Source of the DNA: Candidatus Aenigmatarchaeota archaeon
GTDB taxonomy: Archaea; Aenigmatarchaeota; Aenigmatarchaeia; GW2011-AR5; JACRAC01
DNA length: 64,000 nt
Assembly: GCA_016187395.1 (NCBI GenBank)
Contig: JACPJV010000006.1
Coordinates: forward strand, 62,345 to 126,344
Reading direction: 5' to 3'
Shown here: one piece after another, positions 338 to 31,428 of the stretch
Layout: each line of letters begins with the position of its first letter
Numbering within the stretch: position 1 is the first letter of the stretch
Notes under the pieces: generated by a model
The model's database searches: none
What the model was told of the DNA's origin: nothing
What the model saw: the letters and a program-made list of their open reading frames with translations, nothing else
Translations under genes and position numbers: made by a program

Positions 338-395
338 TGCCTTTTCTTCGCATTTATAGTGCTACAAGGAATAAATTATTTCCTTGTTTCACATT
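338..395. repeat. short palindromic repeat, copy A of 'tatagtgNtNcaaggaata...ttccttgtttcac' family
   Basis: tatagtgctacaaggaataaattatttccttgtttcac. Contains perfect hairpin caaggaata/tatttccttg. Related copies at 9476, 29364, 44921, 51511. Confidence 0.6.
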
Positions 396-795
396 ATTCT
401 ATTTCCAATGTGCCTTCCTTGAAGTTTATATGAAGATTGAAATTTTTCAGGAAAGACAGACCAAGCAATCCGTCCACATAACTTCTGGACGGCAGATCAT
501 GAACAATAGCTCTTATAGTCCTGGCTTCCTTATCAAGTACCCTTACTATTTCTAGATTCACAAGAGGGACTTTCTCAACACCGCTCGCCGTTACAGTTTC
601 AATTCTTTCCTTTGAAAGTTCCGGTTTTAATTCCAGAATTTCAGCCACTTCCCAAGGAATCATCACGTAAGTCGCTCCTGTGTCCAAGGCCATACGGATC
701 TTTTTACGGATACCTTTATTCCCAATGAATACATCCAAAACGATAACAGAAGAGTCTTTATCAAAAAGATATTTTGACATGAAAAGCCACCGCAT
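394..795 (-). CDS. retropepsin-like aspartic peptidase (clan AA)
   Basis: 133-aa ORF with ALDTGAT active-site motif and downstream G-rich flap-like segment typical of retroviral-type single-domain aspartyl proteases. Confidence 0.5.
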   Translation of the reverse strand: MRWLFMSKYLFDKDSSVIVLDVFIGNKGIRKKIRMALDTGATYVMIPWEVAEILELKPELSKERIETVTASGVEKVPLVNLEIVRVLDKEARTIRAIVHDLPSRSYVDGLLGLSFLKNFNLHINFKEGTLEIE

Positions 796-3885: not shown

Positions 3886-4242
3886 TTGATGTCTATGTTA
3901 GCAAATGCCCAAAGATTTGAGCGCTTTTTGGCAAGAAGGGGAAGCTTCAGGGTACAATGCCCTCGACAAGAACGCGGACGTGTCTTCACAAGACGTAAGT
4001 ATGATGTGTTTTTGGATGGCGAGAAGATCGGCGTTTATACAGAGGTTGAAGGGAGATTTCTAAGCGGCGGGATGACATCCGAAGGCATAATTTCGCAGGT
4101 TTTTGAAGGGCGCGTACCGGGTTATGAATTTTCGACCCCTCAAATAGTTCTTGAATATTCACGGGATAAAGGTACGGGATTTCCTGCAGGAACAAGAACA
4201 TCTTCGCGGAAAGACGGGCATGCGTCAATACCATTTCCCTAA
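3886..4242 (+). CDS. hypothetical protein (118 aa)
   Basis: ORF only. Basic N-terminus. Confidence 0.3.
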   Translation: MMSMLANAQRFERFLARRGSFRVQCPRQERGRVFTRRKYDVFLDGEKIGVYTEVEGRFLSGGMTSEGIISQVFEGRVPGYEFSTPQIVLEYSRDKGTGFPAGTRTSSRKDGHASIPFP

Positions 4243-5837: not shown

Positions 5838-6124
5838 ATATCATTCACCATTGAACTGCCGCCCTCAGCTCGCCTCACTGCGGTCGAAGTGTAAATTTCT
5901 TCCTTGTTCGGCGGCTTCGCTTGGCGGATGACCCATACGAAACACACCTCACGTTTTGCCAATGCAAAATGATTTGCCAGAATGCAAACCGACGAACCTT
6001 CGGTTCGTCCATTCACTCGCAAATCCGTTCACTTTCAAACGTGCATACACTTTCGCCTTCTTGCATTTGCTTCTTTCAGATCCTCAGACTTCTTTCCTGC
6101 TTTATTTTTTCCCATGTTGCCCAG

Positions 6125-6685: not shown

Positions 6686-7197
6686 AATAACTTGAGAATA
6701 AAGGATTTAAATGTGGCGAAGTCATTAAGGCAAAGGATAAGGTTGTCGATTAGTTGTCGGTGAAAAGGCAGGATAAAGGTCGAATGAATTTGACTCCTTC
6801 CGTCCTTCAAGCCGTAGGTAAGACAAAAATCAGTAGAAATGGAATATGCCAAAAAAATAGCTTTCCTTTTCCATTTAATTTTTCCTGTAATCTCTATTTG
6901 CTATCTTCGGAAGCCTCCTCTTAAAGCCCACGGCTTTAGCCGTGGGATAAGATATGGAAGGCTTCCGAGATGCTTTGCTCCGAGAAACCCCCGACTTTAG
7001 GTGGGGGAGAATACAGAGCAAATCATCTCCTCGTCCACTTCAGTTTTTTTGCAGACGTGCCTCTGAGGGAAAAGGACTCGCATTTCCCGGAGCAGAACCA
7101 GAGCGGCTTTCCGTGCCCGCTGACGAAAAGCTTGCCTGTTCCCTGTTCTATGCTGGCTGAACAAAAGGAGCATTTTGGCATGGGTATCACGAGATGA

Positions 7198-7516: not shown

Positions 7517-7726
7517 TCATCTCCTTCCAAAACTGCCTGTGCTTTCCATCTCTGTCTCCCTGAGCATCAGGATATCGCCCAAACGCACAGGACCAATGAC
7601 ATTCCTGGTCAGTATCTTTCCTTCGTCCTTGCCCTGGCTAACCCTGCACTTAATGCGCGTAACGCCCTTTGCGCCCATTCTTCCTATAATATCAATGACT
7701 TCAGCCGGAGTTGCATCGTCTGGCAT
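7517..7726 (-). CDS. rps28e: 30S ribosomal protein S28e
   Basis: Internal start [59 protein letters not shown] matches S28e. Downstream of L7Ae as in the archaeal L7Ae-S28e-L24e operon. No L24e ORF was found. Confidence 0.8.
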
Positions 7727-7787
7727 AGAAACACACCTCACGATTTGCCGCATGCAAATCGTGCATTCATCCTGACACCTCAAAAAA

Positions 7788-8367: not shown

Positions 8368-8597
8368 ATCCCTTTCTTTGGAAAGAAAGGTCTTTATTAA
8401 ACCCCAAAGAAATATTCGGAAGTATCTTCCGATGATTTGCTCCCTCTCGGAGAAGTTTGCAACCGCTGGAAGTAAGGGTGATTGATAAGTATTCTTCTTT
8501 TCATTAAACATCCATTGAGATTTTTCCTTTAATATTTTCCTTTGTTTTTCCCTCCTTTGTTTTTTATTTTAATACTCTTTTGCACCTATTTCTCGGT

Positions 8598-9360: not shown

Positions 9361-9474
9361 ATGATACTGCGTTATTGTTCCAAATGCAAGGATTACTGCA
9401 TATCATTCGTATGCCCGAGATGCGGATTAAGCACCCGCAGCGCGCATCCGACGAAGTTCAGGATGAAAGTTTGA
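9361..9474 (+). CDS. nop10: H/ACA ribonucleoprotein complex subunit Nop10
   Basis: 37-aa zinc-ribbon MILRYCSKCKDYCISFVCPRCGLSTRSAHPTKFRMKV. Typical position after aIF2-alpha. Below the ORF-track length cutoff. Confidence 0.75.
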   Translation: MILRYCSKCKDYCISFVCPRCGLSTRSAHPTKFRMKV

Positions 9475-9475
9475 T

Positions 9476-9626
9476 TATAGTGATGCAAGGAATACAAGAA
9501 TGAGCAAAGCTCATTCTGTACAGCAGGAACTTCGTTCCTGCTTGTAAATCAGGATATAATATTTCCTTGCTCACTATATGTGAACCAACAAGTATCATAT
9601 CGGGATTATTTTGTTGCTTCACTATA
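9476..9626. repeat. MITE-like palindromic repeat element, copy B (~150 nt)
   Basis: Bounded by tatagtgatgcaaggaata ... tccttgctcactata and gtgaaccaa...ttg.ttcactata inverted repeats. ~85% identical over ~85 nt to 51529-51609. Contains nested hairpins aatgagcaaagctcatt and caggaacttcgttcctg. Confidence 0.65.
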
Positions 9627-10130
9627 TTCCAGATTCAGAACCCAGCAGTTCAAGCTTTCATCAAATCTGAAGCCGCTTCTTTTTGCTGTCACATCATATC
9701 TCATTCTTAATCTTTCCTGTCTTTTGCCGCTATAATCATCCCAATATCTGTTGTCCTCTGCCTTCTGAACCCTTATCTGCTTGAAACTGTTTGCAGATGT
9801 CCAATCTACCGCAATTCTCAGAAGCATCCTTTCCCATCGAATTTGTTTGAGGTCTTCCATCTCTCCAAACGCTCCCTGTATCTGCCTTATGATAATATAA
9901 TCATTTTCTGCATCGAATGCAAGGAAGGCTATAGAACGGTTTCCATTCCTCTTCAGTACAAAGCCGTAGGGCGCATCCATATGCATAAATGTTGCGTGAC
10001 CGTTTGGTCCGTGAAACCTAAGGGAATACCTCGATGGATTCAGATCCCTGCTCCTTGAAAATTCCGCCAAATAACTTGCTGCCTCTGCAAAAGACCTTCC
10101 ATCAAAATCCGATAAAACTCTTGACAGCAC
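9606..10130 (-). CDS. hypothetical protein (174 aa)
   Basis: ORF only. Its 3' end abuts repeat copy B. Confidence 0.4.
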   Translation of the reverse strand: MLSRVLSDFDGRSFAEAASYLAEFSRSRDLNPSRYSLRFHGPNGHATFMHMDAPYGFVLKRNGNRSIAFLAFDAENDYIIIRQIQGAFGEMEDLKQIRWERMLLRIAVDWTSANSFKQIRVQKAEDNRYWDDYSGKRQERLRMRYDVTAKRSGFRFDESLNCWVLNLEYSEATK

Positions 10131-10182
10131 AATGAATCTTATTCAAAAAATCTTTAATAGTGCGCAAACAAAAGAATAATTA

Positions 10183-14904: not shown

Positions 14905-15170
14905 ATGAAATGGAATTTATAGCTCTGTAGAAAACCTTGTCGAAATGATGATCACCTATACTCCCCGCCTACAATGCGAATCGAAGATTCGCATGTACAG
15001 TGAAGAGCGGAATTCTTCTCGTACAGAAGAAATCTTTGATTCCTTCCTGTAAAGGCAGAGTTTTTATGGGGAGGCTTCCGACGATAAGATAGAGGGAACA
15101 GAATATACTTTTCCATCAGAAAAAGAAAGTTTTCAGACAACATTACATTGAAGGCTTGATTCTTCTGGAA

Positions 15171-15314: not shown

Positions 15315-15677
15315 TGACAGTAGAATGGATTGCCGGATTAAAATGCTTTTTGCTGTTTCGGTTGGTTGTATTAACCTAAGGTATGAACAAATAGGAAGCC
15401 TCCTGCAAACTGGTGAGGCTTGGAAGATGAATGGACGGTTGCTTCGCAACCGTCAATCTGCATCCCGGCTGTTTCAACCCCCGAAATTACCTTCTGGCAA
15501 GGAAACAGCCAAGAGGCAACCGGACTGATGAGCAATCGTATAAATTCACTCATCAGTCATTCTGCATCGTGAGGCGGCATTTACAAAATGCCTCCCTACT
15601 TTTTGATTCAATGAAATCATACGCTAAGTTAACAGAACCCTAACACCAAGATCGAAGGCTTATTGTTTCATCTCGCG

Positions 15678-16082
15678 TCAGCATTCACAGGAGCCGTAGG
15701 TTTCTCTTGTTGCAGGATGCTCCCTGACTTTTCTGCAGAAGTCAAGCCAGTTATCTATCACTGGCCTGAATGATTGCAAGTAATCGCAGGCATTGCCGCG
15801 AACTACGCAGCCGCCGCCGCAGTTTTCCAGGCATACCAGGTACGCGCCTTCCTCAACGCCATAAAGATTCTCGCAGGCATTAAGCCATGAAGGATATTCC
15901 CTTGCAAGGTTTATACTTGCACGATCCGGATTGCTGCATATGGCTGCGCAGCCGCTCCGGAATTCCTTCTCAAGAGTGGCGCGGTCGAAGAAAGACAGGC
16001 CGCTGAGAAGGAAATAGGTCAAGACCGCTATCACCAGCGCTGCCATTACAATTATGACCACTCCTTTTATTGCCAATGCCAT
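15678..16082 (-). CDS. Cys-rich secreted protein with archaeal class-III (type IV pilin-like) signal-peptide candidate
   Basis: Internal start MALAIKG|VVIIVMAALVIAVLTYFLL: K-G followed by ~20 hydrophobic residues fits the prepilin-peptidase pattern. Mature part has 11 Cys. Immediately downstream of the giant gene. Confidence 0.4.
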   Translation of the reverse strand: MALAIKGVVIIVMAALVIAVLTYFLLSGLSFFDRATLEKEFRSGCAAICSNPDRASINLAREYPSWLNACENLYGVEEGAYLVCLENCGGGCVVRGNACDYLQSFRPVIDNWLDFCRKVREHPATRETYGSCEC

Positions 16083-16120
16083 CGAAACACACCTCCCGAT
16101 TCGCTGCATCCACTTGCACG

Positions 16121-19100
16121 CTAGCTTCTCTTATATTCAATCCACAGCCTTATTTTTTCGCGGTTGATTAATATTACTATCACCACGATGATCACTATTG
16201 CAATCACTGCTGCTAATGCCCATGGAAACTCTCCCTGCGCAGCTCCTCCTGCGCCCTGATCTCCTGCCAGCCCTATCCTGGTGCCGTATACGCGGAGCTC
16301 AAATATCTTCACTATGCTCCTGTCTGCACGCTCTGCCTCATCTATGTTTATGCGCACCCATCTTGCGGTTGCAGGCCCGAAGTATGTGACGTTCCAGTCA
16401 CGCTCGTATTGAGCATTATCTACGTCAGCGACCTCGAGGTATGTGCTGTCGTCTTTGCTGACCTCTATTGAAAAGGACCTGGGCCTGTCTATCTGGGAGT
16501 ATATTCCTATACCATTCACAGACATTTCCTGCGACAGGTCAACCTTTATCCATGCCGGAAGGGGAGATTCCCAGAACGTGGAAGGGTCGCTGTCTATCGC
16601 AAGCGTAGGCCCAAAGCCTGCTGCAGATGACTTGGCAAAGGCATTTGCTATTGAAAGCGAAAGACCTGCAGGCTCATAAAAATCTTGGGCTCCGCCGCAT
16701 ATGATTGTTCCCGTCTCTGAGCATATCAGAGGCTCGCTGTACGTGCTTCCGTAAACGCCTATTGAAATAGATTTTGGATCTGAATCTGAAAAGTCTGCCT
16801 GATATGACATGCTTTCTGCATAGAGCCTTTGAGACTGCACGCCGCTTACAGATATTACAGTATAATTTCCTCCTGTCCTGACTGCCTGGACGCTTGCAAC
16901 ATACTTCTGTTTCACAGGATCAAATACGCACGTGGATTTTTCTATGGTTATGCCGCATCCTTCCTGTGAAGGCGTGCATGCAGGCATCGTGTTTTCCCTG
17001 CAGCATACTGTTCCTGCAGTGCACGTGCCTTCTCTCTGCTCTCTGTCCAGGCACAGCTGTACATTGTCCGTGCATGACGGCAGGCATGTATATGCGCAGC
17101 CGCCTCCTGGGGGTGTAACGACAAGCTGCTGCACAGCGCTGGTGGATGAGGAGCCTGCGCTATCCCGGGCAGACACGTACCATGTATACGATCCCGGGTT
17201 CTTGCCAACCGCAGCTGTGCAGGAATATCCTGCTCCGTCACGCGACATTGTACACAGCTTTTCACTGCATATTGAGTCAAGGCACGCTTCTGCGCGGGTT
17301 ATGTTGTCTGATTCCGCATCCCTAAGCTCTGCGTAGAATTTCACGCTGCCTCCCTGCTGAACAGAAGAAGGCTCTGCCCTTGCGTTTGCTATCGCAGGTG
17401 CCAGGTTTCCCTGCCCTTCTGTGATTATTAAAATGCTCTGCTTCTGTTCGCTCTGGTTGTTTATAACTGTAAGCGTCGTGAGCGAGGTTCTCTTTGGCAG
17501 GGATATCTTTGCAACAAGGGAATTTCCTGTCTGGATTGATGCCTGAATCTGCCCTGCACCGCACTGCTTTGTTGAAGATCCTGCCTGCAAGGTTGCAGAT
17601 GCGTTGCTTGTGCAGGATATTGAATATGAATCTGAGAAGCCTGTGTTTGTTATTGTAATCTCATGATCGACTGGCGCTGACACGGTTTTCTGCTCTGATG
17701 ATGGCTGCAACAGAAAGTCGTAGTTGTTTACAGCAACAAAAACAGATCCCAGGAATGTGCTGGTGGTTCCTGCTTTTGCTATGACACATAGCCAGTAGCT
17801 CTTGTCAGCAAAGCTGGCGGTGTTCCAGGCTGCTGTGTAGGTTTTTTTGTCTCCGGATCCTTCAGCCTGCATGGAGAACAGAGGTGCGCCTGCGCACTGC
17901 CGGGAGTTTGCAGAAACAGAGAAGTCAATTTCATCAAAGGTTCCGCGTATGACTGCTTCCACCGAGGCTGTGCCTGAAAGAACTGCCCCTTCCCGGGGCG
18001 ACACTATGCTGGTTTCAGGCGCTGTTACTGTGAAGCTCATTCCTACATTCTTTGATGAAAACTCAGGAGCCTGTTCGCATTCCTGCTCAGAGATTGCCGA
18101 GGCAAGGTCGCCGTGAACCGTGCATGAATTGATTGTCCACGTCCCTGCGCTGTCGAGGAATATTGGTATTTCTACTGGTGTTTCACCTGATCTGAACAGT
18201 GTGCAGGAGGATTTTGGCTCGACCATTGTCCCATCACTTCGCGCAACCTCGCATGAAGCGAAACCGCGGTAATCCTCTCCAAACGAATTTGCCACAGACA
18301 TGGATATCTTTGCTGTTTCACCGACGAATGTACCGGGCGGTACTATGCCCAATATCTCCAGCCCTGGAATGCCTATGCAGCTTGTCGCGATGCGCGCCTG
18401 TATCCTTTCTTCTAACGACTCAGTGTCTTCAAGCAGACTTTCAATTGAGCTCTTTGACGGATTCAGCAAGGCTGCGTCCAGCAATTGCAAATGATCTTCG
18501 CGCCATGCGCAGGCTTCCTTCAGTATGTCCGCGCACACGCGCTCGCCTTCGCTGATCCTTCTTGCGACAACAGACGGGCAGTTTTGCACAATAGAGCTCC
18601 AGCGGCTTGCTGCAGATGCCAGCCTTTCTAAGTTATAGAACGGGCACGCGAAGCTGTAATTTACAGATCTATACGACTGTATATTTGTTCCTGTTACGTC
18701 CTCGCCTCTTATGTAGAAATATATATCATCTTCTACGTCTGTCGGGCACGCGACTTCATTATTATAATTGTCCCCGAACACTCCCCTTCCTGTCGGATCT
18801 AATTCAGCAGCACAATCCTTCAAAGTTCCTGAAATGCCTGTTCTCGTTATGCCGCACTGCGACGCAAGGCACTGCTCGGGGGTTGCGCCGCGCCTGCACG
18901 CCCTTACCTCCTGGCCAAAAAGCGTCTGCTCCAGTGCAATATCAACAGACATTTCTGTGGTATTGTCCTTTGGCTGCATGCATGTATAATAGTCAAAACC
19001 GGCGCCGCTTCCAAAGACCGGGCATTTGAATATGCCTGCGTTAAAGCTGCAGTCTGCTGCGCAGCTCTGGCTAGTCTCGCCACGCTCAGGCTCGCACACG

Positions 19101-22100
19101 TAATTGCCGCACCCTTTCACTGGTATGGTTATTTCTGCAACGCCCCGGACTCCTCCGCCAAGCTCTGCTACTACAAACACCTTATGATCGCCGTCAACTG
19201 CAGTGCGCGACGGCGTTATGAAGAGCTCCATCTGCAAAGATTCCTGCGGCCCGAACTCTGCATTTATCTCCTGCAGAAAGTCGTTGCCGAATACAAACTC
19301 AGCTTCCCATCCGTCAGGAACATCAAATTCGACGTTCACGGGGCTTTGTGCCGCGAACTCCGGCGGATTTTCATTCTTCACGGTTATATCAAAGGCGACA
19401 GGCACACGCGGCCTTGCAGGAAGCGAATACCCTTCTGCAAGCTGCCAGCTAACAGAAGGGCGCAGGCTCTGGCTTATCACGTAGGATGAGCAGGCTTGCC
19501 CGCTTATTCCTGTGGTTTTTGCTGTAACGCACCAGTTTATTGAATCGCTTATCTGCGCGCCTGGCGGGGACGCAACTTCTACTTTGAACGACTGGCTGTC
19601 TCCTGAGGCTCCCTTTCTCTGCAACGATACTTCACTGGTATCTGCAGATATGCTCCATCCTGCAGGAATTTCTGACAGGCTTATATCCAATGTCAATGCC
19701 GTGTCTGCCAGGTTGTCTATGCGCACGTCATATTCTGCAGCTTCGCCTGCAGGGGCAAGCATGCGGCCGGGCACGATGGTTATGAGAGGAGCTCCTGGCT
19801 GGTATGCGTAGACCAGAGCTTCATAGTCTGATATCTGCGACAGCGATGAGGAATAAATAGCTCCGGATTCCGACCAGTATATGCGATTTGAATAAACTGC
19901 AATTGAGCTGATATGAGGCCTTCCTATTGCGATTGGAACATCTCCATTACTGCCGCCAGAAAGCGGGTCTGCCGGAGTGCCGTCGCCCGCTATCTTCACG
20001 ATTTTTCCCTTGCCTGTGCCTCCGTTAACTGCTGCGTAAATATCATCGCCAGCCACAAACACGTCATTTATTCCAGCCTTGTTTTTGTATAGAATTTCCT
20101 CAGAGCCGCCGTCTTTGGGGATGCGCTTTACTGAATCGTCCTCGGTATAATATACGAAACGGCTGTCCAGCGCAAGGCCTTTTGCTGACGCACTTGCAAA
20201 CAGGCAATTTGCACCCGCACAGTTCTGTGCGTTGGCATTCAAAACAACGCGCTTTATCTTTCCTCCGTCCAGCCAATATGCATTCTGGTTATCAACTGCC
20301 ACGTGGGTTGCATTGCCGATTCCTCTTGCCATGTCAGAGGGCGTGAATGCATTTTTTGCAGTCTTGCTTATTGCCCCGGCTGCTGCGAAGTATATATTAC
20401 CTGAATCAAGAGCTATGCCGCCCGGCAAGCTGCCTATTGAATAGTCTATCCCTGTTGCTCCGCCAGTGCTTACAGAGCGGAGCCTTCCTTCAGTTGTTGT
20501 GTAATATATGAAATTGTTCTGATCTGTTGCGATGAACAGCGCGTCTGCGGCTATCTCGCTGCTTACAGGTTCAGGCAGCGATTCTGATATCATCGCATAG
20601 CCTGTGTACGTGCCTATGGAGCCGCCTGTCGGGAATACGTTCATGATAAGCTCTTGCTGACCCTTGCTCAGGTCTACGGCGCCAACAGGCTCGCCTGCAG
20701 GCGTTTCAAAGTCAGACGTCCACCCTGAGCCAGGGGCTTCGCCTTGCAGCGCAAATAAATATGGCGCGCAGCCTTGCGGCACAGAGCTGTTTACAACAAG
20801 CGGGTATCCCCATTCGCGGAGCGAGGACTGACTGGCCGATGAAATCTTTGCGCGTATGTCTACGTCCGCATTATTCAGTGACTGGTGGTTCGTCTGCTTC
20901 ACTGTGGAGAATCCCTTGTTGTTAGTTATCCTCACAGATATAGGCCCTGGAGACGAGGACTGCATTGGAACCGCGACGGTGCTGTCAGGATTGACGACCA
21001 CGCTGGCAGCAGGCTCTATGGAAGCGCCTTCTCCTGATATTGCAACGAATCCTGCGCCTGCCTGCGGAGAAAGAACTTCAAGCAGGTATTCAGTAGAGCT
21101 GCTCTGGATTGCAGGCTCTGTGATTGTCAATGCAAACTCAGCTGGCACGCCTTCCGGTGAGCATACCGCGCTTTGGCTAGTAATTGCAGGAGGAGGCCTG
21201 TCCTGCGCTGAAATAACCTCAAGCCCGGGAGAGCTTACTTCAGAGGCAGGCTTTGCCAGGACAAGGTAATTGCCTGGCATTGGCACGACAAACCTGTGCG
21301 TGAACACTCCCTCTGCTCCTGTGAAGTTTGCCTGAATCGTGGAATTCTCAACTACTGTGCCGTTCTGGTCAATGACAATAATGTCAACGTCAGCAGTCTC
21401 AGGCACGATCGCGCCTTCAATTGTGTGGTATTCTGAAGGCAGGGGAAGCACGTGATCTAATTTGCCGACAAGCACCTGCCTTGTGCGGTCGTGCACGCCC
21501 AGAGAGCCGACAGTGTCAAGCTGCTCGCATTTGCCTTCAAAACCTGCGCCAAGCCCGGGCTGCCTGACTGACGAGCGCCGATATATGCTTTCGCCGCGCG
21601 TCAGCAGTTCGCGCATCTGGAAGAAGAACTGGGTCTGGTAGGAGCGCGCAAGCATCTCGTAAGGCCTTGCCCGCGTATCGCGAGTGCCGTAAACAGGCTG
21701 AGGCGGCAGCGGAGAGCCGGCAGGATAGCGCGTGCCGAACTGCAGCTCTGCTTTGTTCTGTAGCAGAGGGTCGAATGTCGCGGGCGTGTCTACAGACGGG
21801 TCGTATGCTAAAGGTTCGTCGGAGAATGAAACTTCAGAAGGCGCTGCAGAAATTGCGTAGAATACCGCAGCAGCTGTTCCTATTGCTATAAGTTCTCCAC
21901 TGCTGTCGTACGCAAACAGAGCTGCTTCTGCAGTTTCAGGGACGAATCCTGGCGGAGAAGTTCCTGAACATGTATTGCTCGTTTCATCTCCAAACAGTTC
22001 TTGAAAACATGCCTCTACTACGGTTTCGTCCTGCACCATTATGGCCTGGTATGAATAACTATCTACGCCAGTCACAGGCAGCCATTCTGCACGTATGGAG

Positions 22101-25100
22101 ACCGTTTCTTCACTTGTTCTGATATCGCGAAAAGCGCTAAGCCTTGTTATTTCTATTTTGCCTAAAGTTTCTTCGCCTAATATTGTCTTCGGAATTCCAT
22201 ACGGCATTGGGTCTACGCTAAAACTTGCCGCAGGCTCGCTCTGTCCGTCCGGAATGATATCTACCATGATCATCGTTGGATTTGATGTCTCGCCTGTTTC
22301 GATTACAGCAGTATTCTCTTCATCAGACATGTATATCGTTTCCGAATACCACTGATACCCCCCGGGATCGTTATAGTATACAACTGCGCTTGCTCCGCCT
22401 GGCTGGCCCCAGTAGAGATTTCTTATGATTATCCTGTCGCTGCCTTCCTCTGTGAATTCAACGCTTCCTAAAACTGAATTATACTTCCTATGAGCTTTTC
22501 CTGTATCCATTCCCAGCCTTGTTGTGGCTAATCTCTCATTTCCGCGCAGCGCGGTTATTTCTATGAGAAGCCTCTCAGGATCGCCGAGCGGAAGCTCCTC
22601 CAGAATTAACTGACCCTGTATCCATCTTTCATTCACGATCTGCGTATAATCCCGATGAATCCCTTTCGGTGTGCTCGTGCTCCATGAAAGATAGTGAACC
22701 TCGTAGCTGTCTGCCTGAGGGTGCGCTCCCCATTTGAAATCCAAATCATACCATTTTCCTGTTAGATCTCTGATAGTAATTCCTTTTTCATAGGTAATCT
22801 TGGTGATTTCAACATTTGGCCACTGCAATCCAGGAGGTGCTGGTTTGGCTGGCGGTACAGGTGGTGACGCAAGGCATGACTTCCACGCATCCCAGTAAGA
22901 CATTATGCCAGGAACGTATTCGCGGGTTTCTGCAGGAGCATCAGCACCTGTCCAGTCACATCCTCCGGAATTGTATCCTGCCAGGGAATTCCGAACGCTG
23001 CCTTCGCAGGCTTCCTTGCCGCTGACAGCTCCGCTAATCAGGGCATCAAAATATCTTACGCCGCATTTTATGTTATCTGCCGGTTCTCCCGGAAAAACGC
23101 CAATATCCTTGCAATACGTATCCCATGTAAGAGATATGGCCGGGTCATTGACTATCTGCATCAGGCCGTGTGCGTTTTTCGGGCTAATTGCATACGGGTT
23201 CCAGCTGCTTTCCCAGCTTATGATGGCTGCTATCAATGCTTTCTGTTCTGTCTCGTTTGTCACAACTTCTTTTAGATTATTCGCATTTTTCAATGCCTCT
23301 TCAATTGCTGTCTCGTAATTATTATAATCACCCCTCTGTTTTGTGCATACCTGCGAAGCAGGAACCCTACTGACTGGCGTGCCGCTGACCTGCGTAAGCT
23401 CCAATTCTGCTGCCCTGCACGTGCGTGTATCCGCTCCTTTGCCTGTAAGGAACGTGTCCATTTCGCCTGCAATCTGCTTTACTTTCTGGTTGTCCAGCGC
23501 TTCAGCAGCTGCGTTGCACTGGTCTACTTTGCCTGACAATGCTCTCCAGTCAGCCCTGTCCTTAAGCCGGTTTATGCATGAATTGAACTGGGTGCATTTT
23601 ATCTTCAGCTCGCTTATTGCGACGCTTTTGAGGTCCCTGGTGCAGTAATACGGATCTGTCAAGGGCTTTGTTGTGCTTACATGGTTTAGGTCGTCGCAGG
23701 AGATGCGGCATTCTCCTTTCACTTCATTTTCTTCTACCTTAAGGCATAACCGCGTATTGTGATCTCTCTGAAAGTCAGGGCTCAGGCATACTTCACACGT
23801 AAGCGTTCCTTCCTGCTCCAGATCTGCAAAAACCTTGTTTTTCTCTATTCCAGTCTGCGTTTCTACCTTAATCCTTTCTCTAACAACAGCAGTGTCTGAT
23901 ATTATCTTTGCGATCTCGCAGCGCTCCCTGTCTCCTCCTGTCACGACTTTCTCTGCCTTGCCTTTGCCTTCTACTGTCTGTCCTTCTCTAGGTGATTGAT
24001 CCAAAGGCACGCATTCCCTGACAACCCTTCCGTCGCTTTTCCAGACCACGTGCGTGCCCCTTGCTTCGACGCATTTCAGGCAATCGCTGCCGAGCTTTGC
24101 AAATTCAGCAGCACTCCACTGCTTTGACAACTCAGACTGGCTTAATCCGCATGAGTTGGCAGAAGAATATTGCTCTGTCGTGATCTCGACCTCGCCGGCA
24201 CTGCATGAATCTGATGACAAGACGCATCTTCCCAGGCCTGTTTTTGGAATGTTTCCACCGCCTGGCAGAGGAACGTAGACGCCGCTGACTCCGGATATCT
24301 GGCCGTTCAATTCCTTGATCGGCGTTGCGCACCACTTGCCCGGAACGATCGGGAATGTAGATGAACACTGCTCTCTGGACGTGACTGATGATTTTCCTTG
24401 CGGGCATATCGGATCTGTCCTTACTGTCTGACCATTTTCAATATACTCACATTTTTTATTGAGAATTGATCCGTCATCGTCTCTGTCGCATATCGGAGTT
24501 GTTACTCTCCTGTCTGTATTATCCACACACGCTATTCCGAACTTATCGACGCTGCTTAGGCACGATGCCAAGGCTCTTGCATTATCCGGGCTTCTTGTCA
24601 GGCATTCGTCGCATGTCTGGGATTGCGACGCTATGGCGCGCTGCGCTGCAGTCCTTCTTTGCGCAGCTTCGTCCTGGATCTGCTCGACCATGCCTGCCAT
24701 TGTGTCCATGAATGACCAGAAGCCTGCGTTTGCCCAGTAAATGTCAAACTTAGACGGCTTCTGGCACGATTCTGCCGCAAGGCTGTAATCTGCAAGGTCG
24801 TAAAGCTGAGTGCTGTGAGCCATTGGCAGGGAGTCGAAGGTCCACCACGTGAATATAATGAACCTGATCTTGCAGAACTGGAAATTGATTCCAAAGAATT
24901 CCTTGATAGGAGTGTTGGCTGTGCAATATTGGGTAGGCACGAGGTCTTTCTGCTCTTGCTGGATCTCTCCTACCGCTACTTTTTTATCCAATTCAAGGTT
25001 ATGGTTTCGCTGCGCGTCTTCTATGGCCTGTATGTAGAGGAAACCGAAAACGCCCTGGAACAGCCTTTGCATGGCTCCGCCGCCACCGAATGCTTCTGTG

Positions 25101-27037
25101 AGCCATCCGTGCACAGAAGATGCGAGAATCGTGGCAAATAATTCATTCTGGTTTATAGATGCAGGGACGTACATATCAACAGTAGGTGGTGCCGGCACAA
25201 CTCCCAGCTTGTCCCTGGACCAGTTGTTCACGCTGTCCAGCGCTTTTGAAAAGCCTTCCAGCATCGTGCCTGATGCAGGCAGCAGCGCCCACGTAGGCTT
25301 GTTGCTGCAGTCATTTCCGATGCAGGGCTCGCACGTGCCGTCTATCTGGTATATGCATAAAGGCTTTGTGCCGCCGCTGCTTTTGAATGTGCGCCTGCTG
25401 ATCGCGCCCTTGACTTCAATTTCCTCGCCTGCGAATGTTGCTGTTGGGGTTACGTTGAAATCTGCTATGAGCATCGTATCAGGAAACGGGTCTATTTCCC
25501 TTAGAACAGGCGAGCCTGTGTAATTGAATTCCAGCCGCAGGACGCGCGCATTCACAGGCACAGACGAGAAATCAAAATATTGCACAAACTCCTTTTGCCC
25601 TGTGCCAAGCTTCTTGTTTACTTCGAATGTCTTGAGTCCTGCGGTAATCTTTGTCAGCGTGATATTATCATTCCTATCCCATGTTTCTAATGAAAGGCCG
25701 AAATGCGGATAATCCTGATCAAATTCTATTGTGCAAAATGCCTGCTTTGCTTTGGCAGACGTTGCGTTAGGCTGCTGATCTGCTTCCTGACCAGATGCCT
25801 CTCTTCCTGGCGGAGCTGTTCCTGGCTGGCCTGTGCCAGGGTTTGGTATAAGGGAGGGTGTTGCAAACTGCGGTAGTGGTGCAGATTCATCGGACGGTGC
25901 AAACTGGAAATAGGAATCCCTGTCCAGGTCAACCAAATGCCACGGGTTCTGGAATGAAATTCCCTGCTGCCTGGAGCGCGGCTCTGCAGGCGGCGCACAC
26001 TGTATGCTCCTGATGCTGATGGGTTTCGGCCCTTCTGTTGGCGGGGAGAATTGCGGCGGCTCGGGCAACAAAGGCTGCTCGCATCTCAGCGTGTCAGGCA
26101 TTGTATAGAATCTGGATAATGTATCATAGGACTGCAGGGATGGCTGGGGTATATATCCCGGCGTGCCCGGATAAAGAGGAGGGTAACTGCTTCCCAACGT
26201 CTGCTGCAAAACCCCGAATATGCGAAGCTGGCTCGGGTAGGGAACAATCCTGTACTCTATCGGAAGCGTGAAATCATTTTGTTCAATTACACTTTTTGGT
26301 ATGAATACGTTTGCTGAAAAAGGGCCTTCGCCGAACGCGGTTGTGCCGCTCACAGAGCCTGGCTGGCCAAATCCCGCGCTGCCAAGCCCGAAGCCGCTGA
26401 GACCTGACTGGGCCGCGCCCAGCTGTCCTGATCCCCTTACATTAACCTGCAATGCCTGCCCTCCGAACCACAGGCCGCGCACTGTTGCAATGTAATAATT
26501 CTGCCCTCCGACCGGCCTGCATTCTTTTTCCACAGGAAGGATGAAGAATAGTCCGAGATCGCGTATGTCATTCCATATGTCGTCTTCAAATTTGTAGCAA
26601 GCGCAAACCAGGGAGGATGTTCCGCACGCCACCTCTGGAAACGGCTCGGCATCTGTGACATACCCTCCGCTGCTGACCTGGTTCGCAGGCGTGCACGTCC
26701 CTCCTCCCTGCGGATAAACGTTTTTCTTGCAGAAGGAGTTGCACGCCAGGTCGCGGCTTATCTCGCAGTAACAGAAAGGCTTTTCCCTTGCGCACAGGGT
26801 AGCATCAGGGTGAAGCTGCTTTGCACCCACGTAATCCCTGGCATCGCTGCAGGAGCCGCCAACACCATAGAGCTGCTGGCAGCCTGTGCCGCACTTTTCG
26901 TCTCCAGGCGGCTGGGCGGCTGGCTGGGCGTATATTGGGGTGCCTAGAAGGAAAAATGCTAATATGACTAACAGCAGCGCTTTTGCAAAACGCATAGTAT
27001 TATTAGAAACCGGGTATAAAAATAGGTTTTCAGACAA
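16121..27037 (-). CDS. giant cell-surface protein (3,638 aa) with SLT lytic-transglycosylase domain, YWTD-like beta-propeller, CARDB/Ig-like repeats, discoidin (F5/8 type C) domain and C-terminal TM anchor
   Basis: Uninterrupted 10.9-kb ORF. N-terminal signal peptide (MRFAKALLLVILAFFLLGTPIYA). Cys-rich N-terminal modules. SLT signature ES-x-WNPYAIS-x5-GLMQ near aa 1275-1295 (nt ~22870-23290). Repeated YWTD/NHL-like blades ending RIYWSE (aa ~2165-2400). FGPTLAIDSDPSTFWESP discoidin domain (aa ~3460-3586). C-terminal hydrophobic helix then basic tail REKIRLWIEYKRS. Confidence 0.85.
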   Translation of the reverse strand: MSENLFLYPVSNNTMRFAKALLLVILAFFLLGTPIYAQPAAQPPGDEKCGTGCQQLYGVGGSCSDARDYVGAKQLHPDATLCAREKPFCYCEISRDLACNSFCKKNVYPQGGGTCTPANQVSSGGYVTDAEPFPEVACGTSSLVCACYKFEDDIWNDIRDLGLFFILPVEKECRPVGGQNYYIATVRGLWFGGQALQVNVRGSGQLGAAQSGLSGFGLGSAGFGQPGSVSGTTAFGEGPFSANVFIPKSVIEQNDFTLPIEYRIVPYPSQLRIFGVLQQTLGSSYPPLYPGTPGYIPQPSLQSYDTLSRFYTMPDTLRCEQPLLPEPPQFSPPTEGPKPISIRSIQCAPPAEPRSRQQGISFQNPWHLVDLDRDSYFQFAPSDESAPLPQFATPSLIPNPGTGQPGTAPPGREASGQEADQQPNATSAKAKQAFCTIEFDQDYPHFGLSLETWDRNDNITLTKITAGLKTFEVNKKLGTGQKEFVQYFDFSSVPVNARVLRLEFNYTGSPVLREIDPFPDTMLIADFNVTPTATFAGEEIEVKGAISRRTFKSSGGTKPLCIYQIDGTCEPCIGNDCSNKPTWALLPASGTMLEGFSKALDSVNNWSRDKLGVVPAPPTVDMYVPASINQNELFATILASSVHGWLTEAFGGGGAMQRLFQGVFGFLYIQAIEDAQRNHNLELDKKVAVGEIQQEQKDLVPTQYCTANTPIKEFFGINFQFCKIRFIIFTWWTFDSLPMAHSTQLYDLADYSLAAESCQKPSKFDIYWANAGFWSFMDTMAGMVEQIQDEAAQRRTAAQRAIASQSQTCDECLTRSPDNARALASCLSSVDKFGIACVDNTDRRVTTPICDRDDDGSILNKKCEYIENGQTVRTDPICPQGKSSVTSREQCSSTFPIVPGKWCATPIKELNGQISGVSGVYVPLPGGGNIPKTGLGRCVLSSDSCSAGEVEITTEQYSSANSCGLSQSELSKQWSAAEFAKLGSDCLKCVEARGTHVVWKSDGRVVRECVPLDQSPREGQTVEGKGKAEKVVTGGDRERCEIAKIISDTAVVRERIKVETQTGIEKNKVFADLEQEGTLTCEVCLSPDFQRDHNTRLCLKVEENEVKGECRISCDDLNHVSTTKPLTDPYYCTRDLKSVAISELKIKCTQFNSCINRLKDRADWRALSGKVDQCNAAAEALDNQKVKQIAGEMDTFLTGKGADTRTCRAAELELTQVSGTPVSRVPASQVCTKQRGDYNNYETAIEEALKNANNLKEVVTNETEQKALIAAIISWESSWNPYAISPKNAHGLMQIVNDPAISLTWDTYCKDIGVFPGEPADNIKCGVRYFDALISGAVSGKEACEGSVRNSLAGYNSGGCDWTGADAPAETREYVPGIMSYWDAWKSCLASPPVPPAKPAPPGLQWPNVEITKITYEKGITIRDLTGKWYDLDFKWGAHPQADSYEVHYLSWSTSTPKGIHRDYTQIVNERWIQGQLILEELPLGDPERLLIEITALRGNERLATTRLGMDTGKAHRKYNSVLGSVEFTEEGSDRIIIRNLYWGQPGGASAVVYYNDPGGYQWYSETIYMSDEENTAVIETGETSNPTMIMVDIIPDGQSEPAASFSVDPMPYGIPKTILGEETLGKIEITRLSAFRDIRTSEETVSIRAEWLPVTGVDSYSYQAIMVQDETVVEACFQELFGDETSNTCSGTSPPGFVPETAEAALFAYDSSGELIAIGTAAAVFYAISAAPSEVSFSDEPLAYDPSVDTPATFDPLLQNKAELQFGTRYPAGSPLPPQPVYGTRDTRARPYEMLARSYQTQFFFQMRELLTRGESIYRRSSVRQPGLGAGFEGKCEQLDTVGSLGVHDRTRQVLVGKLDHVLPLPSEYHTIEGAIVPETADVDIIVIDQNGTVVENSTIQANFTGAEGVFTHRFVVPMPGNYLVLAKPASEVSSPGLEVISAQDRPPPAITSQSAVCSPEGVPAEFALTITEPAIQSSSTEYLLEVLSPQAGAGFVAISGEGASIEPAASVVVNPDSTVAVPMQSSSPGPISVRITNNKGFSTVKQTNHQSLNNADVDIRAKISSASQSSLREWGYPLVVNSSVPQGCAPYLFALQGEAPGSGWTSDFETPAGEPVGAVDLSKGQQELIMNVFPTGGSIGTYTGYAMISESLPEPVSSEIAADALFIATDQNNFIYYTTTEGRLRSVSTGGATGIDYSIGSLPGGIALDSGNIYFAAAGAISKTAKNAFTPSDMARGIGNATHVAVDNQNAYWLDGGKIKRVVLNANAQNCAGANCLFASASAKGLALDSRFVYYTEDDSVKRIPKDGGSEEILYKNKAGINDVFVAGDDIYAAVNGGTGKGKIVKIAGDGTPADPLSGGSNGDVPIAIGRPHISSIAVYSNRIYWSESGAIYSSSLSQISDYEALVYAYQPGAPLITIVPGRMLAPAGEAAEYDVRIDNLADTALTLDISLSEIPAGWSISADTSEVSLQRKGASGDSQSFKVEVASPPGAQISDSINWCVTAKTTGISGQACSSYVISQSLRPSVSWQLAEGYSLPARPRVPVAFDITVKNENPPEFAAQSPVNVEFDVPDGWEAEFVFGNDFLQEINAEFGPQESLQMELFITPSRTAVDGDHKVFVVAELGGGVRGVAEITIPVKGCGNYVCEPERGETSQSCAADCSFNAGIFKCPVFGSGAGFDYYTCMQPKDNTTEMSVDIALEQTLFGQEVRACRRGATPEQCLASQCGITRTGISGTLKDCAAELDPTGRGVFGDNYNNEVACPTDVEDDIYFYIRGEDVTGTNIQSYRSVNYSFACPFYNLERLASAASRWSSIVQNCPSVVARRISEGERVCADILKEACAWREDHLQLLDAALLNPSKSSIESLLEDTESLEERIQARIATSCIGIPGLEILGIVPPGTFVGETAKISMSVANSFGEDYRGFASCEVARSDGTMVEPKSSCTLFRSGETPVEIPIFLDSAGTWTINSCTVHGDLASAISEQECEQAPEFSSKNVGMSFTVTAPETSIVSPREGAVLSGTASVEAVIRGTFDEIDFSVSANSRQCAGAPLFSMQAEGSGDKKTYTAAWNTASFADKSYWLCVIAKAGTTSTFLGSVFVAVNNYDFLLQPSSEQKTVSAPVDHEITITNTGFSDSYSISCTSNASATLQAGSSTKQCGAGQIQASIQTGNSLVAKISLPKRTSLTTLTVINNQSEQKQSILIITEGQGNLAPAIANARAEPSSVQQGGSVKFYAELRDAESDNITRAEACLDSICSEKLCTMSRDGAGYSCTAAVGKNPGSYTWYVSARDSAGSSSTSAVQQLVVTPPGGGCAYTCLPSCTDNVQLCLDREQREGTCTAGTVCCRENTMPACTPSQEGCGITIEKSTCVFDPVKQKYVASVQAVRTGGNYTVISVSGVQSQRLYAESMSYQADFSDSDPKSISIGVYGSTYSEPLICSETGTIICGGAQDFYEPAGLSLSIANAFAKSSAAGFGPTLAIDSDPSTFWESPLPAWIKVDLSQEMSVNGIGIYSQIDRPRSFSIEVSKDDSTYLEVADVDNAQYERDWNVTYFGPATARWVRINIDEAERADRSIVKIFELRVYGTRIGLAGDQGAGGAAQGEFPWALAAVIAIVIIVVIVILINREKIRLWIEYKRS

Positions 27038-29244: not shown

Positions 29245-29363
29245 GCTTTTTAATATACTAAGGTGGCACTCTATAACAATTCTTTTCAGGCTCTAATTAC
29301 AGGAGGAACTTCGTTCCTCCTTGTATGGGAAAGCACAAATATCATGTTCCGTTTTATTTGTGG

Positions 29364-29410
29364 TTTCACTATATAGTGCTGCAAGGAATAATCATTTTCT
29401 TGTTTCACTC
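29364..29410. repeat. short palindromic repeat, copy C of the 'cactatatagtgctgcaaggaata...ttcttgtttcac' family
   Basis: tttcactatatagtgctgcaaggaataatcattttcttgtttcac immediately 3' of the TadC-like gene. Preceded at 29299-29321 by hairpin caggaggaacttcgttcctcc. Confidence 0.55.
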
Positions 29411-31428
29411 TAGACGTTGAACTGGGTGAGGGGACCGAAGATCAGCAGCGATATCACGGATATGGCTGCGTAGACTATGGGCGATACAAAGAACATGCCT
29501 GAGAGGATTTCAGAACGCCTTATCGGATCTTCGCCTACCTCTACTCCTGAGAGAAGATATCCGTACAAGAACAAGGACTGCGCCACGAAAATAGATACTA
29601 CGACAATAAACTGGAACGGCGTAATGACCAGCTCGCCGAATGCAAAAGAGCCTCCTACAGGCAGCGATGCAAAGCCTGATATCGCGCTTTGCTGGAGCTG
29701 CAGCTGGCCAAGTATTCTTATTATGACGATGGCCATGGTTGCTATAACGCCTGATATAAGAGGCGTGAGGACATATGCCTGAAACTTTATAGAGTTTGTA
29801 ACGCCATGCATTGACCTTTGCACGTATTCCTGCGTATTATGAAGGTCTTTCAAATAGCGCGATATGGACAGCATTGCCGTTCCTGCGTTTGCAGGGCCTT
29901 TTTTGGCTGCCTCTGTTATAGCCTTCATCACAGATTCGATAAGCGTGGATGGGTAGAATCTTATCGCGCCCTGCTCTTTGTCGAAGAATGCCTGCTCAAA
30001 CGTCATCGAGAATTTCTGCATGTTCTGTGCTGCGCGAAGGAACAATTCCCTTATCTTGAGCCCCTCCATCCTTTGTATAGACTCTATCATGGCTTTTTCT
30101 ATAGGCACTCCCGACCTGATTCGCGTGCCCAGCTGGAACAAAGCCTCCTTGAACTCATCTTCTATGGATCTTATGTCTTCCCGCAGCTTCGAACGGCCGC
30201 GGCTTATCAGGAGAAAATAGGTTCCCGGCGCAAGCGTTATTGCCAGCGTGAACAAGAGCGCTGAAAGAACAGAGAAACTGAGGACTGATGTCCCGCCAGC
30301 TTCGACAAAGCCGGCGGTTTCGCTTTCCTGGCATACAATTTTTCCAGCCTGCTCTGTGCACGCAAGGCCTGCACTATAAAGAAATAACGCAAGTGCTGCA
30401 AGAATTATCCCGACCAGAAAAGCCACGGCTGCTGCAGATACAAGCCTTTTGCCCATGTAGAATTTTCCGGGAGGCGGCAGCCTGGGGTGCCTGCTGACAT
30501 CTATCTTGCTGAATGTCACGGGCCTTTTTTCCAGGATGCTTGCCATGAGGAAGAAAAGCATTATCGGCAGGAGTATGTCGTACATCACAAGAAGGGGGAC
30601 AGGCCCTACGGAAAGGAATATTGATATCACAGGAAAAAGAACGAGCCCCATCACAGGCAATATGAGGCCCATTGCGTTCACAGCCATCAGCGGCATGCGC
30701 AGGTTTGATATGTAATTCTGGGATGTCTCCTTGTTTCCGCTAAGGACTATCCTGACAGCCTCGTCCAGCAATGAGTGGAATCTTGCCCCGCTCTGCCTGG
30801 TTGAATTTATGATAAGGCCCACGGCCTCCCCGAACTCCCTGTTCCCTTTCCATTTTTCAGAGTAATCCAGCAGCGCATCCTCAACGCTGAGATAATTTCC
30901 AACACGCACATCCCACAGGAGTTTTGCAAGCTCTACCTGCATTCCGGCTGTTGTGTTTCTCGCTGCAAATTCTACAGCACCTTCCAGGCTTGGCGTGTTT
31001 CGCATGTAGATTACCATGTACAGGATTGCGGAAATCATGTCTGCTCCCACTGTCATTTCGTACCTCTTCTTGAGCCTCCTGGGCGCTGTATAGAAATAAT
31101 AAGCAGCTGCAATGCCTGCCAGCGATATGGACGTTACAAAAAGGATGTCCAGCGCCATTCCAGCAAAGGCTGCAATTATGTAGATTATCACGGGCACAAA
31201 GGAAAGGATTGCAGTAAGTGCTGTGAGAGACGCAACGTCCCTGGGCTTTATGTTAAGATGGGCGAATTCTATCGCTCCCTCCAACCGCTTGTTTTTTGTA
31301 TCTATTTTGAGAAAACTTCCCGCCCTTCTTGCAAGCCTTTCATAAAACGTGTCTTCCCTTATCTTAACAGGGCTGCGAAACTCCCTGTAAGACTCTGAAA
31401 TTATATCCTGCTCCGGCACCGGAATCAA
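29410..31428 (-). CDS. type IV pilus/archaellum-family membrane platform protein (TadC/FlaJ/GspF-like)
   Basis: 672-aa polytopic protein with two GspF-like cytoplasmic helical domains, each followed by TM segments. Directly downstream of the secretion ATPase. Confidence 0.65.
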   Translation of the reverse strand: MIPVPEQDIISESYREFRSPVKIREDTFYERLARRAGSFLKIDTKNKRLEGAIEFAHLNIKPRDVASLTALTAILSFVPVIIYIIAAFAGMALDILFVTSISLAGIAAAYYFYTAPRRLKKRYEMTVGADMISAILYMVIYMRNTPSLEGAVEFAARNTTAGMQVELAKLLWDVRVGNYLSVEDALLDYSEKWKGNREFGEAVGLIINSTRQSGARFHSLLDEAVRIVLSGNKETSQNYISNLRMPLMAVNAMGLILPVMGLVLFPVISIFLSVGPVPLLVMYDILLPIMLFFLMASILEKRPVTFSKIDVSRHPRLPPPGKFYMGKRLVSAAAVAFLVGIILAALALFLYSAGLACTEQAGKIVCQESETAGFVEAGGTSVLSFSVLSALLFTLAITLAPGTYFLLISRGRSKLREDIRSIEDEFKEALFQLGTRIRSGVPIEKAMIESIQRMEGLKIRELFLRAAQNMQKFSMTFEQAFFDKEQGAIRFYPSTLIESVMKAITEAAKKGPANAGTAMLSISRYLKDLHNTQEYVQRSMHGVTNSIKFQAYVLTPLISGVIATMAIVIIRILGQLQLQQSAISGFASLPVGGSFAFGELVITPFQFIVVVSIFVAQSLFLYGYLLSGVEVGEDPIRRSEILSGMFFVSPIVYAAISVISLLIFGPLTQFNV

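Follow-up and report, generated by a model that had tools for sequence, protein, structure and literature searches.

Nested palindromic hairpin repeats beside genes in the chromosome of an Aenigmarchaeota-like archaeon

The window and its hairpin units

The window analysed here, a single stretch of 64,000 nucleotides taken as a whole, is chromosomal DNA of an Aenigmarchaeota-like DPANN archaeon, as judged from its housekeeping gene content and from the relatives of its eIF2-alpha. The archaeal housekeeping genes include those for ribosomal proteins S13, S4, S11 and S27e, RpoD, eIF2-alpha, PAC2, GluRS and Nre, together with a short ORF after eIF2-alpha that was assigned to Nop10 by eye and by synteny with annotated Nop10p in two related contigs (L048, L049). 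All named relatives of the window eIF2-alpha belong to Candidatus Aenigmatarchaeota (DPANN). The closest protein from another organism is just 66% identical, and the same species was otherwise encountered only as short Logan contigs from samples SRR12113420 and SRR12113424.

Several larger features share the window with the repeats described below. One 3638-residue ORF (16121-27037, minus strand) occupies 17% of it, and the archaeal type IV pilus ATPase (T2SSE; 31502-35641, minus strand) is split by an intein with a LAGLIDADG homing-endonuclease domain. A protein with a GGDEF diguanylate-cyclase domain, uncommon in archaea, is encoded at 61643-62443 on the plus strand (Pfam E = 3.7e-28). A complete diversity-generating retroelement lies at 55617-58131, with an RT-16 RNA (56679-56849; Rfam, 67 bits), an RVT_1 reverse transcriptase (56974-58131), and variable and template repeats (VR ~56326-56412, TR ~56847-56999) in which 11 of the 12 mismatches are at template adenines.

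The intergenic DNA holds a family of short palindromic repeats that is real and hitherto undescribed (Table 1). With up to three mismatches allowed, its 19-nt left arm TATAGTGMTGCAAGGAATA matches at 355, 9476, 29372, 44921 and 51511, all on the plus strand; the core is thus found at each of the five sites listed in the original prediction, against 0.03 occurrences expected, and none of 100 shuffles reached five. The extents given for some of these sites had to be revised. The first copy covers 355-396 and not 338-395, the third is a cluster at 29298-29412, the fourth, rightly called partial, amounts to a truncated left arm, and the second (9476-9626), correctly located, is no simple element: it is a doublet, one unit of which is split by an insertion. 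The two long copies, put originally at about 85% identity over some 85 nt, are 89% identical across 82 nt (9545-9626 versus 51528-51609), with the similarity ending abruptly at TATAG...CTATA.

The elements also fold far better than shuffled sequence does, with z-scores between -7 and -9 at the long copies; the short copy (345-402) gives -5.3 and -4.3, and 29290-29416 gives -3.6 on its minus strand. Chance AT-rich palindromes, which would have undone the original prediction, do not account for the family, since folds and counts both lie far beyond those of shuffles. A sixth locus, a diverged doublet with the family loop and with other feet and stems (H1 and H2 in Table 1), was found with a seven-unit profile, which brings the total in 64 kb to nine units and one fragment at six loci. 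No unit (42-51 nt) or doublet (~100 nt) has a plausible ORF. Roughly one tenth of the intergenic DNA of the window consists of nested hairpin modules.

Table 1. Positions of the A, B and H hairpin units and of the C-type hairpins nested in them or adjoining them.
Feature	Position	Strand	Description
A1	355-396	+	Short form, 42 nt, about 10 nt of loop absent; right-terminal TTA at 394-396
A2	9476-9578	+	Long form; left arm 9476-9494, remainder 9547-9578
Nested insertion in A2 loop	9495-9546	+	52 nt; c1 at 9493-9520 (+) and c2 at 9519-9546 (-), each TA-bracketed
B2	9577-9626	-	Inverted unit; TA in common with A2
c3	29298-29325	-	C-type; adjoins B3, TA in common
B3	29324-29373	-	Degenerate inverted unit
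A3	29372-29412	+	Short form, about 10 nt of loop absent; terminal CTA at 29410-29412
A4	44921-44939	+	Truncated left arm, 17/19 to core, without right arm
A5	51511-51561	+	Intact long form, 51 nt
B5	51560-51609	-	Intact inverted unit
H1	55325-55373	+	Diverged; stem GCAAACCAAC/GTTGGTTTGC; family loop kept
H2	55372-55420	-	Diverged inverted unit; doublet with H1
c4/c5	55430-55483		C-type doublet, after H2

The left arm and its flank were confirmed at 99.7-99.8% identity by independent contigs from two samples. Same-species Logan contigs, reached via exact-protein matches, were searched for strain-level empty sites; all four (L033, L034, L045 and L050) terminate within a palindromic module, at ~9505, ~9504, ~51581 and ~9587, and the beginning of L050, at ~14995, coincides with a C-type hairpin, c6. 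Short-read assemblies of this organism are thus broken up at these repeats, which is relevant to the quality of DPANN metagenome-assembled genomes.

Hairpin anatomy, covariation and nesting

The basic unit is a hairpin of 42-51 nt, with feet TA-TAGTGA...TCACTA-TA and a stem of 8-13 bp. Stem sequence varies among copies, with self-complementarity kept, and a bulged base confers polarity on the unit. The loop, AATAATCAGGATATGATAC, is AT-rich and conserved in sequence; A units carry AAATCAGGATATAATAC. The feet of A and B are alike (TATAGTSA...TSAC(T)ATA), their stems are each self-complementary (TGCAAGGAA/TTCCTTGC in A, ACCAAATA/TATTTGGT in B), and the reverse complement of B aligns to A nearly position by position. 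Trained on no more than the two long A units, an HMM detects B2 (E = 0.008) and B5 (E = 0.02) on the minus strand, with model positions 2-48 aligned, and the outer 36-nt arms of one doublet, 51511-51546 and 51574-51609, came out of a repeat search as 78% complementary. B is an inverted A-like unit, so the elements at 9476-9626 and 51511-51609 are abutting inverted doublets with a common TA. The second inverted pair described in the original prediction, GTGAACCAA...TTGGTTCAC, is indeed present at 9580 and 51563, but the anatomy drawn from it, terminal inverted repeats enclosing an inner pair, gives way to two homologous hairpin units in opposite orientation.

Single units exist, but inverted doublets of this kind, directly abutting and with one shared TA, are the commoner form. 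The arrangement is (+)(-) in A2/B2, A5/B5 and H1/H2, with B3/A3 as the sole (-)(+) exception. Unit termini are inverted repeats, TATAGTGA...TCACTATA, and the feet differ by type: TATAGTGA in A and B, TGCAAA in H, and TACAAG in the C-type hairpins described below. The A, B and H units examined are bracketed by TA; TA being self-complementary, these brackets may be stem pairs rather than a duplication.

Paired changes were counted on the five B/H-type units only, because the position of the bulge differs between types and a single MAFFT alignment of A and B therefore has no common consensus structure; the short A units misalign in it. Among the five, 91.5% of cells are standard pairs and nine of the 15 pairs have changed on both sides, a result matched by none of 500 shuffles and approached by no slid register. 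Most of the invariant columns fall in the loop. With a covarying stem around an invariant loop, it is therefore the hairpin and its loop that have been preserved, not the sequence of the stem. The GTGATGC and CTGA-like motifs recall C/D-box sRNAs, a candidate that was rejected: the G or C at position 7 covaries with its partner (GTGA/TCAC versus GTCA/TGAC), which fits a base-paired stem and not conserved C and D boxes.

A second family, here called C-type, consists of 24-nt hairpins of the form TACA-A-G N7, a 3-nt loop, and N7' C-TGTA, with a bulged A. Eight of these lie in the window, including the (+)(-) doublets c1/c2, c4/c5 and c7/c8. Pairing is present in 99% of cells, and compensatory change in eight of 12 pairs (again matched by 0 of 500 shuffles); in c7 the foot TACA/TGTA has become TGCA/TGCA, resembling a paired change. 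The family is also found in the relative with the 66%-identical eIF2-alpha.

The C-type hairpins are directly involved in nesting. The 52-nt insertion in the loop of A2 is a C-type doublet, and its junctions read GGAA-TA-[...]-TA-AATCAGG where the uninterrupted A5 has GGAATAAATCAGG. Taken as a paralogous pair of empty and filled sites, the A5 loop (GGAATAAATC) and A2 (GGAA-TA-[50 nt]-TA-AATC) differ by a 50-nt insert plus a duplication of TA. A second such pair is formed by 6957-7026 (CTT-TG-CTCC) and 55491-55614 (CTT-TG-[CAAG...CTTG]-TG-CTCA), in which TG is duplicated. As read from these alignments, the two independent 2-bp duplications appear to be the clearest sign of transposition here, and they would speak for movement of the co-resident C-type hairpins, not of A and B, for which no clean empty site was found.

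Other small palindromic modules form dense mosaics at 55289-55614, 14970-15100 and 6891-7026. An F module (GGAAGGCTTCCGA...GAGCAAATCAT) is present at 6957-7026 and 55491-55614, and a G module (GGAAGCCTCC...) at 6891-6938, at 15050-15097 (inverted) and at 55289-55326; a TATAG foot at 55290-55294 contains the TAG with which a possible small ORF ends. An inverted-repeat pair at 44069-44104 and 63829-63864 has hairpins with TGCA loops, GGACATTCC-TGCA-GGAATGTC and GACGCTCC-TGCA-GGAGCGTC, whose stems differ and are compensated.

Short hairpins in general are in excess, with 20 in the window versus 1-4 in shuffles and 11 in the related contig L035 versus 0-2; these scans used stems of 7-8 bp, and a threshold of at least 9 bp misses the family. 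Related Aenigmarchaeota have their own species-specific hairpin arrays (L035 at 2293-2873, L036 at 4049-4145, and L048 at 4256, 8989, 14728, 14950 and 16281), so that hairpin modules between genes seem to characterise the lineage as a whole. A Rifle groundwater relative has a repeated composite of 4-5 hairpins, and GCA_016187335.1 (L048) has AAACTTTT-nnn-AAAAGTTT hairpins between genes; at the homologous locus of protein P0103 (L051), no comparable hairpins lie 3' of the gene. MITEs at high density have already been reported for some DPANN genomes (PMC11602168). A scan of sequence collections with the exact pattern TATAGTSMTRCAAGGAATA gave eight matches in genome contigs, 23 in metagenomes and one in viral sequence, with no family copy among them. 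Each was single, in an unrelated organism and otherwise dissimilar to the window, and all were set aside as chance.

Junctions with genes and transcription signals

The placement of the copies 3' of minus-strand genes, a central point of the original prediction, holds at four loci, where the element lies 0-17 nt from a stop codon, with the amendment that at one of them the ORF enters the element by 21 nt. Three units (A1, A3 and B2) adjoin a stop codon via their terminal TA. An aspartyl-protease gene (394-795, minus strand) uses the terminal TTA of A1 as its TAA stop, and a T2SSF/TadC-like gene (29410-31428, minus strand) uses the terminal CTA of A3 as its TAG stop; each time, it is precisely the foot base at odds with the consensus TA-TAGTG that turns TAT into TAA or TAG. 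In B2 the consensus foot is intact, and the ORF at 9606-10130 (minus strand) reads into the right arm of the unit. Homologues of this ORF (P0103 and P0104, 45% identical) stop after ...VLDL, whereas the window protein ends in ...VLNL-EYSEATK, with the YSEATK codons and the stop encoded by B2. The result is a C-terminal extension of seven residues relative to the homologues, one case in which a gene product has already been altered. All three junctions are compatible with an element having entered at a stop-codon TA; in two cases the stop would later have been repaired, and in the third the extension would have been left.

The remaining loci are more varied. An ORF at 51626-52444 (minus strand) has its TAG stop (51626-51628) 17 nt from the right end of B5. 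A2 starts 1 nt after the stop of the plus-strand Nop10 ORF (TGA, 9472-9474), so the A2/B2 doublet fills the gap between convergent genes. A4 is in a divergent region, between genes at 44238-44822 (minus strand) and 44988-45686 (plus strand), and H1/H2 is upstream of a plus-strand gene, with a minus-strand gene starting on its other side (or a possible plus-strand ORF of 96 aa ending there). The spacing between Nop10 and PAC2 is 43-166 nt in four other Aenigmarchaeota loci (L046-L049) versus ~710 nt here, the enlarged gap holding the doublet and an extra ORF; in the relative with the 66%-identical eIF2-alpha, the same gap contains other hairpin modules.

Promoters in this genome have a TTTAATA or TTTATAG box between about -33 and -25 relative to the ATG, so that the mRNAs would have no leader or almost none. 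The start of a VTT-domain gene is 18-24 nt from the left end of A5, and this end, read on the minus strand, is ACTATATA and occupies -30 to -23 relative to the gene's second ATG (51486). Two arrangements may be considered from the positions of these signals: either A5 donates a TATA box to the VTT gene, or the gene is co-transcribed through the doublet.

At the other end of the transcript, no consistent oligo-T tract follows the hairpins: of runs of five or more T, copies 1, 2 and 3 have none, and the single one, a T5 at copy 5, is 10 nt beyond the hairpin as read on the gene strand. A terminator role is thus unsupported by sequence, and a bacterial-type terminator was likewise rejected for hairpins that lack a following U-run. 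With one fragment in a divergent promoter region and one doublet lacking a confirmed upstream gene, the shared terminator proposed originally does not stand as the primary explanation. The hairpins are still likely to be read through in transcription, which would affect 3' ends secondarily. In Rfam the elements were unmatched both at the gathering threshold and at E <= 1, the only matches in the window being the RT-16 RNA and one tRNA.

Some neighbouring transcription and translation signals can be noted in passing. Between 10130 and 10183, a symmetric TATA box, CTTTAATAG (10152-10160), lies ~27-30 nt from both the GTG of the ORF at 9606-10130 (minus strand) and the ATG of PAC2 (10183, plus strand), which suggests a bidirectional promoter common to two leaderless genes. 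Three minus-strand genes, including that for S28e, have in common the leader CGTGAGGTGTGTTTCNATG, with a Shine-Dalgarno-like GAGGTG and a start codon (5939-5960, 7721-7756 and 16077-16112); most other genes of the window look leaderless.

Possible explanations and known relatives

The explanation that we consider probable, if far from certain, is mobility: the repeats would be non-autonomous palindromic elements that move preferentially into TA and persist where they land on stop codons. Of the two alternatives in the original prediction, the mobile miniature element with an insertion preference is accordingly the better supported, yet it is unproven. It is favoured because of the nested insertions with 2-bp duplications, the terminal TAs falling on stop codons, the seven-residue extension and the insertion apparent from synteny; the truncated relic A4 and the short deletion forms A1 and A3 also count for it. 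An enzyme encoded elsewhere in the genome would act in trans, moving modules into TA and duplicating 2 bp. Pfam searches of the ~60 window ORFs, with small ORFs included for Y1_Tnp, found no transposase (DDE/IS630, Y1/RAYT or other). In a tightly packed genome, the insertions that survive would be those into the TA of TAA or TAG stops, or those within other copies, and such selective survival would explain both the modules on stop codons and the nested mosaics with C-type hairpins. The inserted modules would form strong 3' hairpins in transcripts, where they may act as buffers or insulators for adjacent genes, and their TATA-rich ends may furnish a TATA box to a leaderless gene downstream. Seen directly in the sequence are the structure of the repeats, their covariation, the nested insertions and the junctions at stop codons; the chemistry of transposition and any effects on RNA or promoters are inferred.

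DPANN archaea have very small, gene-dense genomes from which selfish DNA would be expected to be purged. Mobile modules, if that is what the repeats are, would show how elements of 24-100 nt can persist in such a genome, with other copies and the TA of stop codons as their landing sites. A counterpoint is that perfect compensation and a conserved loop are equally expected from selection on a functional RNA or DNA hairpin; a further one is that the loci number only six.

One version of that idea, which we regard as unlikely but deserving of attention, is that selection acts on the units as cis-acting RNA structures, for instance 3'-UTR stabilisers, terminators or insulators of closely packed genes; their spread would then be due to duplication or gene conversion rather than transposition, and the loop would be bound by a protein. 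The position of four loci within 0-17 nt of stop codons, the strong compensatory covariation of the stem round a conserved loop, and folds that are very stable on both strands would all be natural for such structures, and unrelated hairpins follow genes in other Aenigmarchaeota as well, for example in L048. The inconsistent oligo-T tracts, oligo-T being the archaeal termination signal, are less easily reconciled with it, as are A4, a half-unit in a divergent promoter region, and H1/H2, which follows only a possible 96-aa ORF and no confirmed gene. The ORF extension made by one copy looks accidental rather than like a designed 3' end, modules are nested with 2-bp duplications, and no Rfam family matches even at E <= 1.

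Selection could also act on the DNA itself, if the units were binding sites for chromatin, topoisomerase or segregation proteins that recognise the loop on an extruded or single-stranded hairpin. Some bacterial REP/BIME sites reportedly have been proposed to play a protein-binding role, no part of the unit is better conserved than the loop, the bulged bases are kept as well, and the copies are scattered 5-22 kb apart. We nevertheless find this very improbable: nothing in the window points to a cognate binding protein, the spacing is irregular, and the nested insertions, stop-codon junctions and truncated copy would be left unexplained.

A small RNA gene in each unit, read on the plus strand from a TATA box of its own (TTATAGTG) and antisense to the 3' end of the minus-strand neighbour, seems to us scarcely credible. 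All five A-type left arms are on the plus strand, but with five arms a common orientation would arise by chance with a probability of 1/16. The sequences TTTATAGT and TTTAATAGTG do resemble real promoters here (those of the gene at 2704 and of PAC2), yet the predicted start site would be inside the hairpin loop. The plus strand of 29290-29416 folds at -43.9 kcal/mol versus -30.1 for the minus strand, owing to G-U pairs, but this asymmetry is confined to one degenerate locus, the other three folding equally on both strands, and again there is no Rfam match. Lastly, chance AT-rich palindromes or an assembly artefact can practically be discounted: assemblers do struggle in palindromes, where the same-species Logan contigs all break, but five matches stand against 0.03 expected, the long copies have z-scores of -7 to -9, and independent assemblies from two samples reproduce the left arm and flank at 99.7-99.8%.

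Among known systems, the family appears to be an archaeal counterpart of the REP, Correia and MITE repeats of bacteria rather than a new kind of system. Bacterial REPs are mobilised by RAYT Y1 transposases. Like REP, BIME and REPIN sequences, the units are short, extragenic, imperfect palindromes, typically just after genes, with a polarity set by a bulge or mismatch; they alternate in orientation, form inverted doublets and mosaics with other small motifs, keep structure over stem sequence, and occur as singlets and degenerate copies beside the doublets. REPINs have been stated to be undetected in archaea (bioRxiv 10.1101/2021.07.10.451892). There are differences, however: the units lack the GTAG or CGTC tag and are longer (42-51 nt), with a large conserved loop and doublets that have no spacer; the nested modules come with 2-bp duplications, which Y1 transposition does not make; and the window ORFs include no RAYT gene.

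The Correia elements (CREE) of Neisseria are similar in being palindromic, ~100-155 nt long, with TATAG...CTATA ends and positions beside genes, and they are likewise flanked by TA. One report (PMC2649163) describes promoters formed by CREE ends together with flanking sequence, to which the ACTATATA box upstream of the VTT gene would be analogous. A published variant of the CREE repeat, tatagtggattaaatttaaatcaggacaa (PMC5039591), has TATAGTG and TAAATCAGGA in common with tatagtgatgcaaggaataaatcaggatat at a 1-nt offset, 19 of 30 positions agreeing in a hand alignment with one gap. The 26-bp Correia inverted repeat is nonetheless absent from the units, which beyond two short blocks are unrelated to it, and the units here self-fold, also occur singly and have covarying stems, whereas CREE are described as unique to Neisseria (PMC5039591). 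The resemblance may thus serve as a lead, not as evidence of homology.

MITEs of the IS630/Tc1-mariner group, such as E. coli MITEEc1/ERIC and Sulfolobus SM1, are small, non-coding and intergenic, with a TA target, a 2-bp duplication and termini of the TA|YAGTG type. The likeness lies in the TA brackets, the 2-bp duplications at the nested C-type doublets, the type of end, and the small, non-coding, intergenic nature of the modules. The latter are far smaller, at 24-51 nt, and their terminal inverted repeats vary with perfect compensation, which would be unexpected for a transposase that binds double-stranded DNA in a sequence-specific manner; in addition, one of the duplications is TG rather than TA, and the window has no IS630-like gene. 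Hairpin elements of organelles also nest and cluster. These elements (sponge RHE, Volvox elements and fungal mitochondrial palindromes) multiply in the intergenic DNA of small compact genomes (PMC2800124, PMC2670323), as the tiny hairpin modules here have proliferated in theirs, but the host domain is unrelated and there is no sequence similarity. Integron attC sites were considered and rejected on account of copies 5-22 kb apart with housekeeping genes between them (ribosomal proteins, RpoD, GluRS), no GTTRRRY cores and no integrase, and CRISPR, ORB sites of replication origins and dif sites on account of spacing, copy arrangement and absent core motifs.

In layout the family is like BIMEs and REPINs, and in its ends and 2-bp duplications it is like IS630 and Correia elements. 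A more daring version of the mobile reading, which we put forward as an improbable one, is that the family is the first archaeal counterpart of REPINs and BIMEs: hairpins recognised by structure, with loop and bulge kept and the stem at liberty to covary, which a dedicated single-copy enzyme would copy as inverted doublets within a reduced DPANN genome, stop-codon TAs offering a safe place to land. The TATAGTG...TAAATCAGGA motif common to the ends might in that case indicate the class of enzyme that moves Correia elements, for which we know of no transposase identified so far in Neisseria. Should a cognate enzyme be found, the covarying stem and conserved loop would offer a clean system for the study of structure-specific DNA recognition in archaea.

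Three further sets of small sequences in the window can be recorded. A 66-nt repeat, ACAAAATGC.TCCCT.CTT.TTGATTCAATGAAATCAT.CGCTAAGTT.ACAGAACCCTA, is present in two inverted copies 44.6 kb apart (15577-15642, plus strand; 60240-60305, minus strand) that are 89% identical, and could be a small RNA or a conserved gene end. The one tRNA match in Rfam (49890-49957, minus strand) is marginal, at 33 bits versus a gathering score of 29, and ARAGORN found no tRNA in the window. A hairpin of the form CCTTTCTT(T)-nnnn-(A)AAGAAAGG lies beside this marginal tRNA (49988-50009) and again after the S27e gene (8371-8390), and a similar hairpin adjoins the S28e gene in the relative L035.
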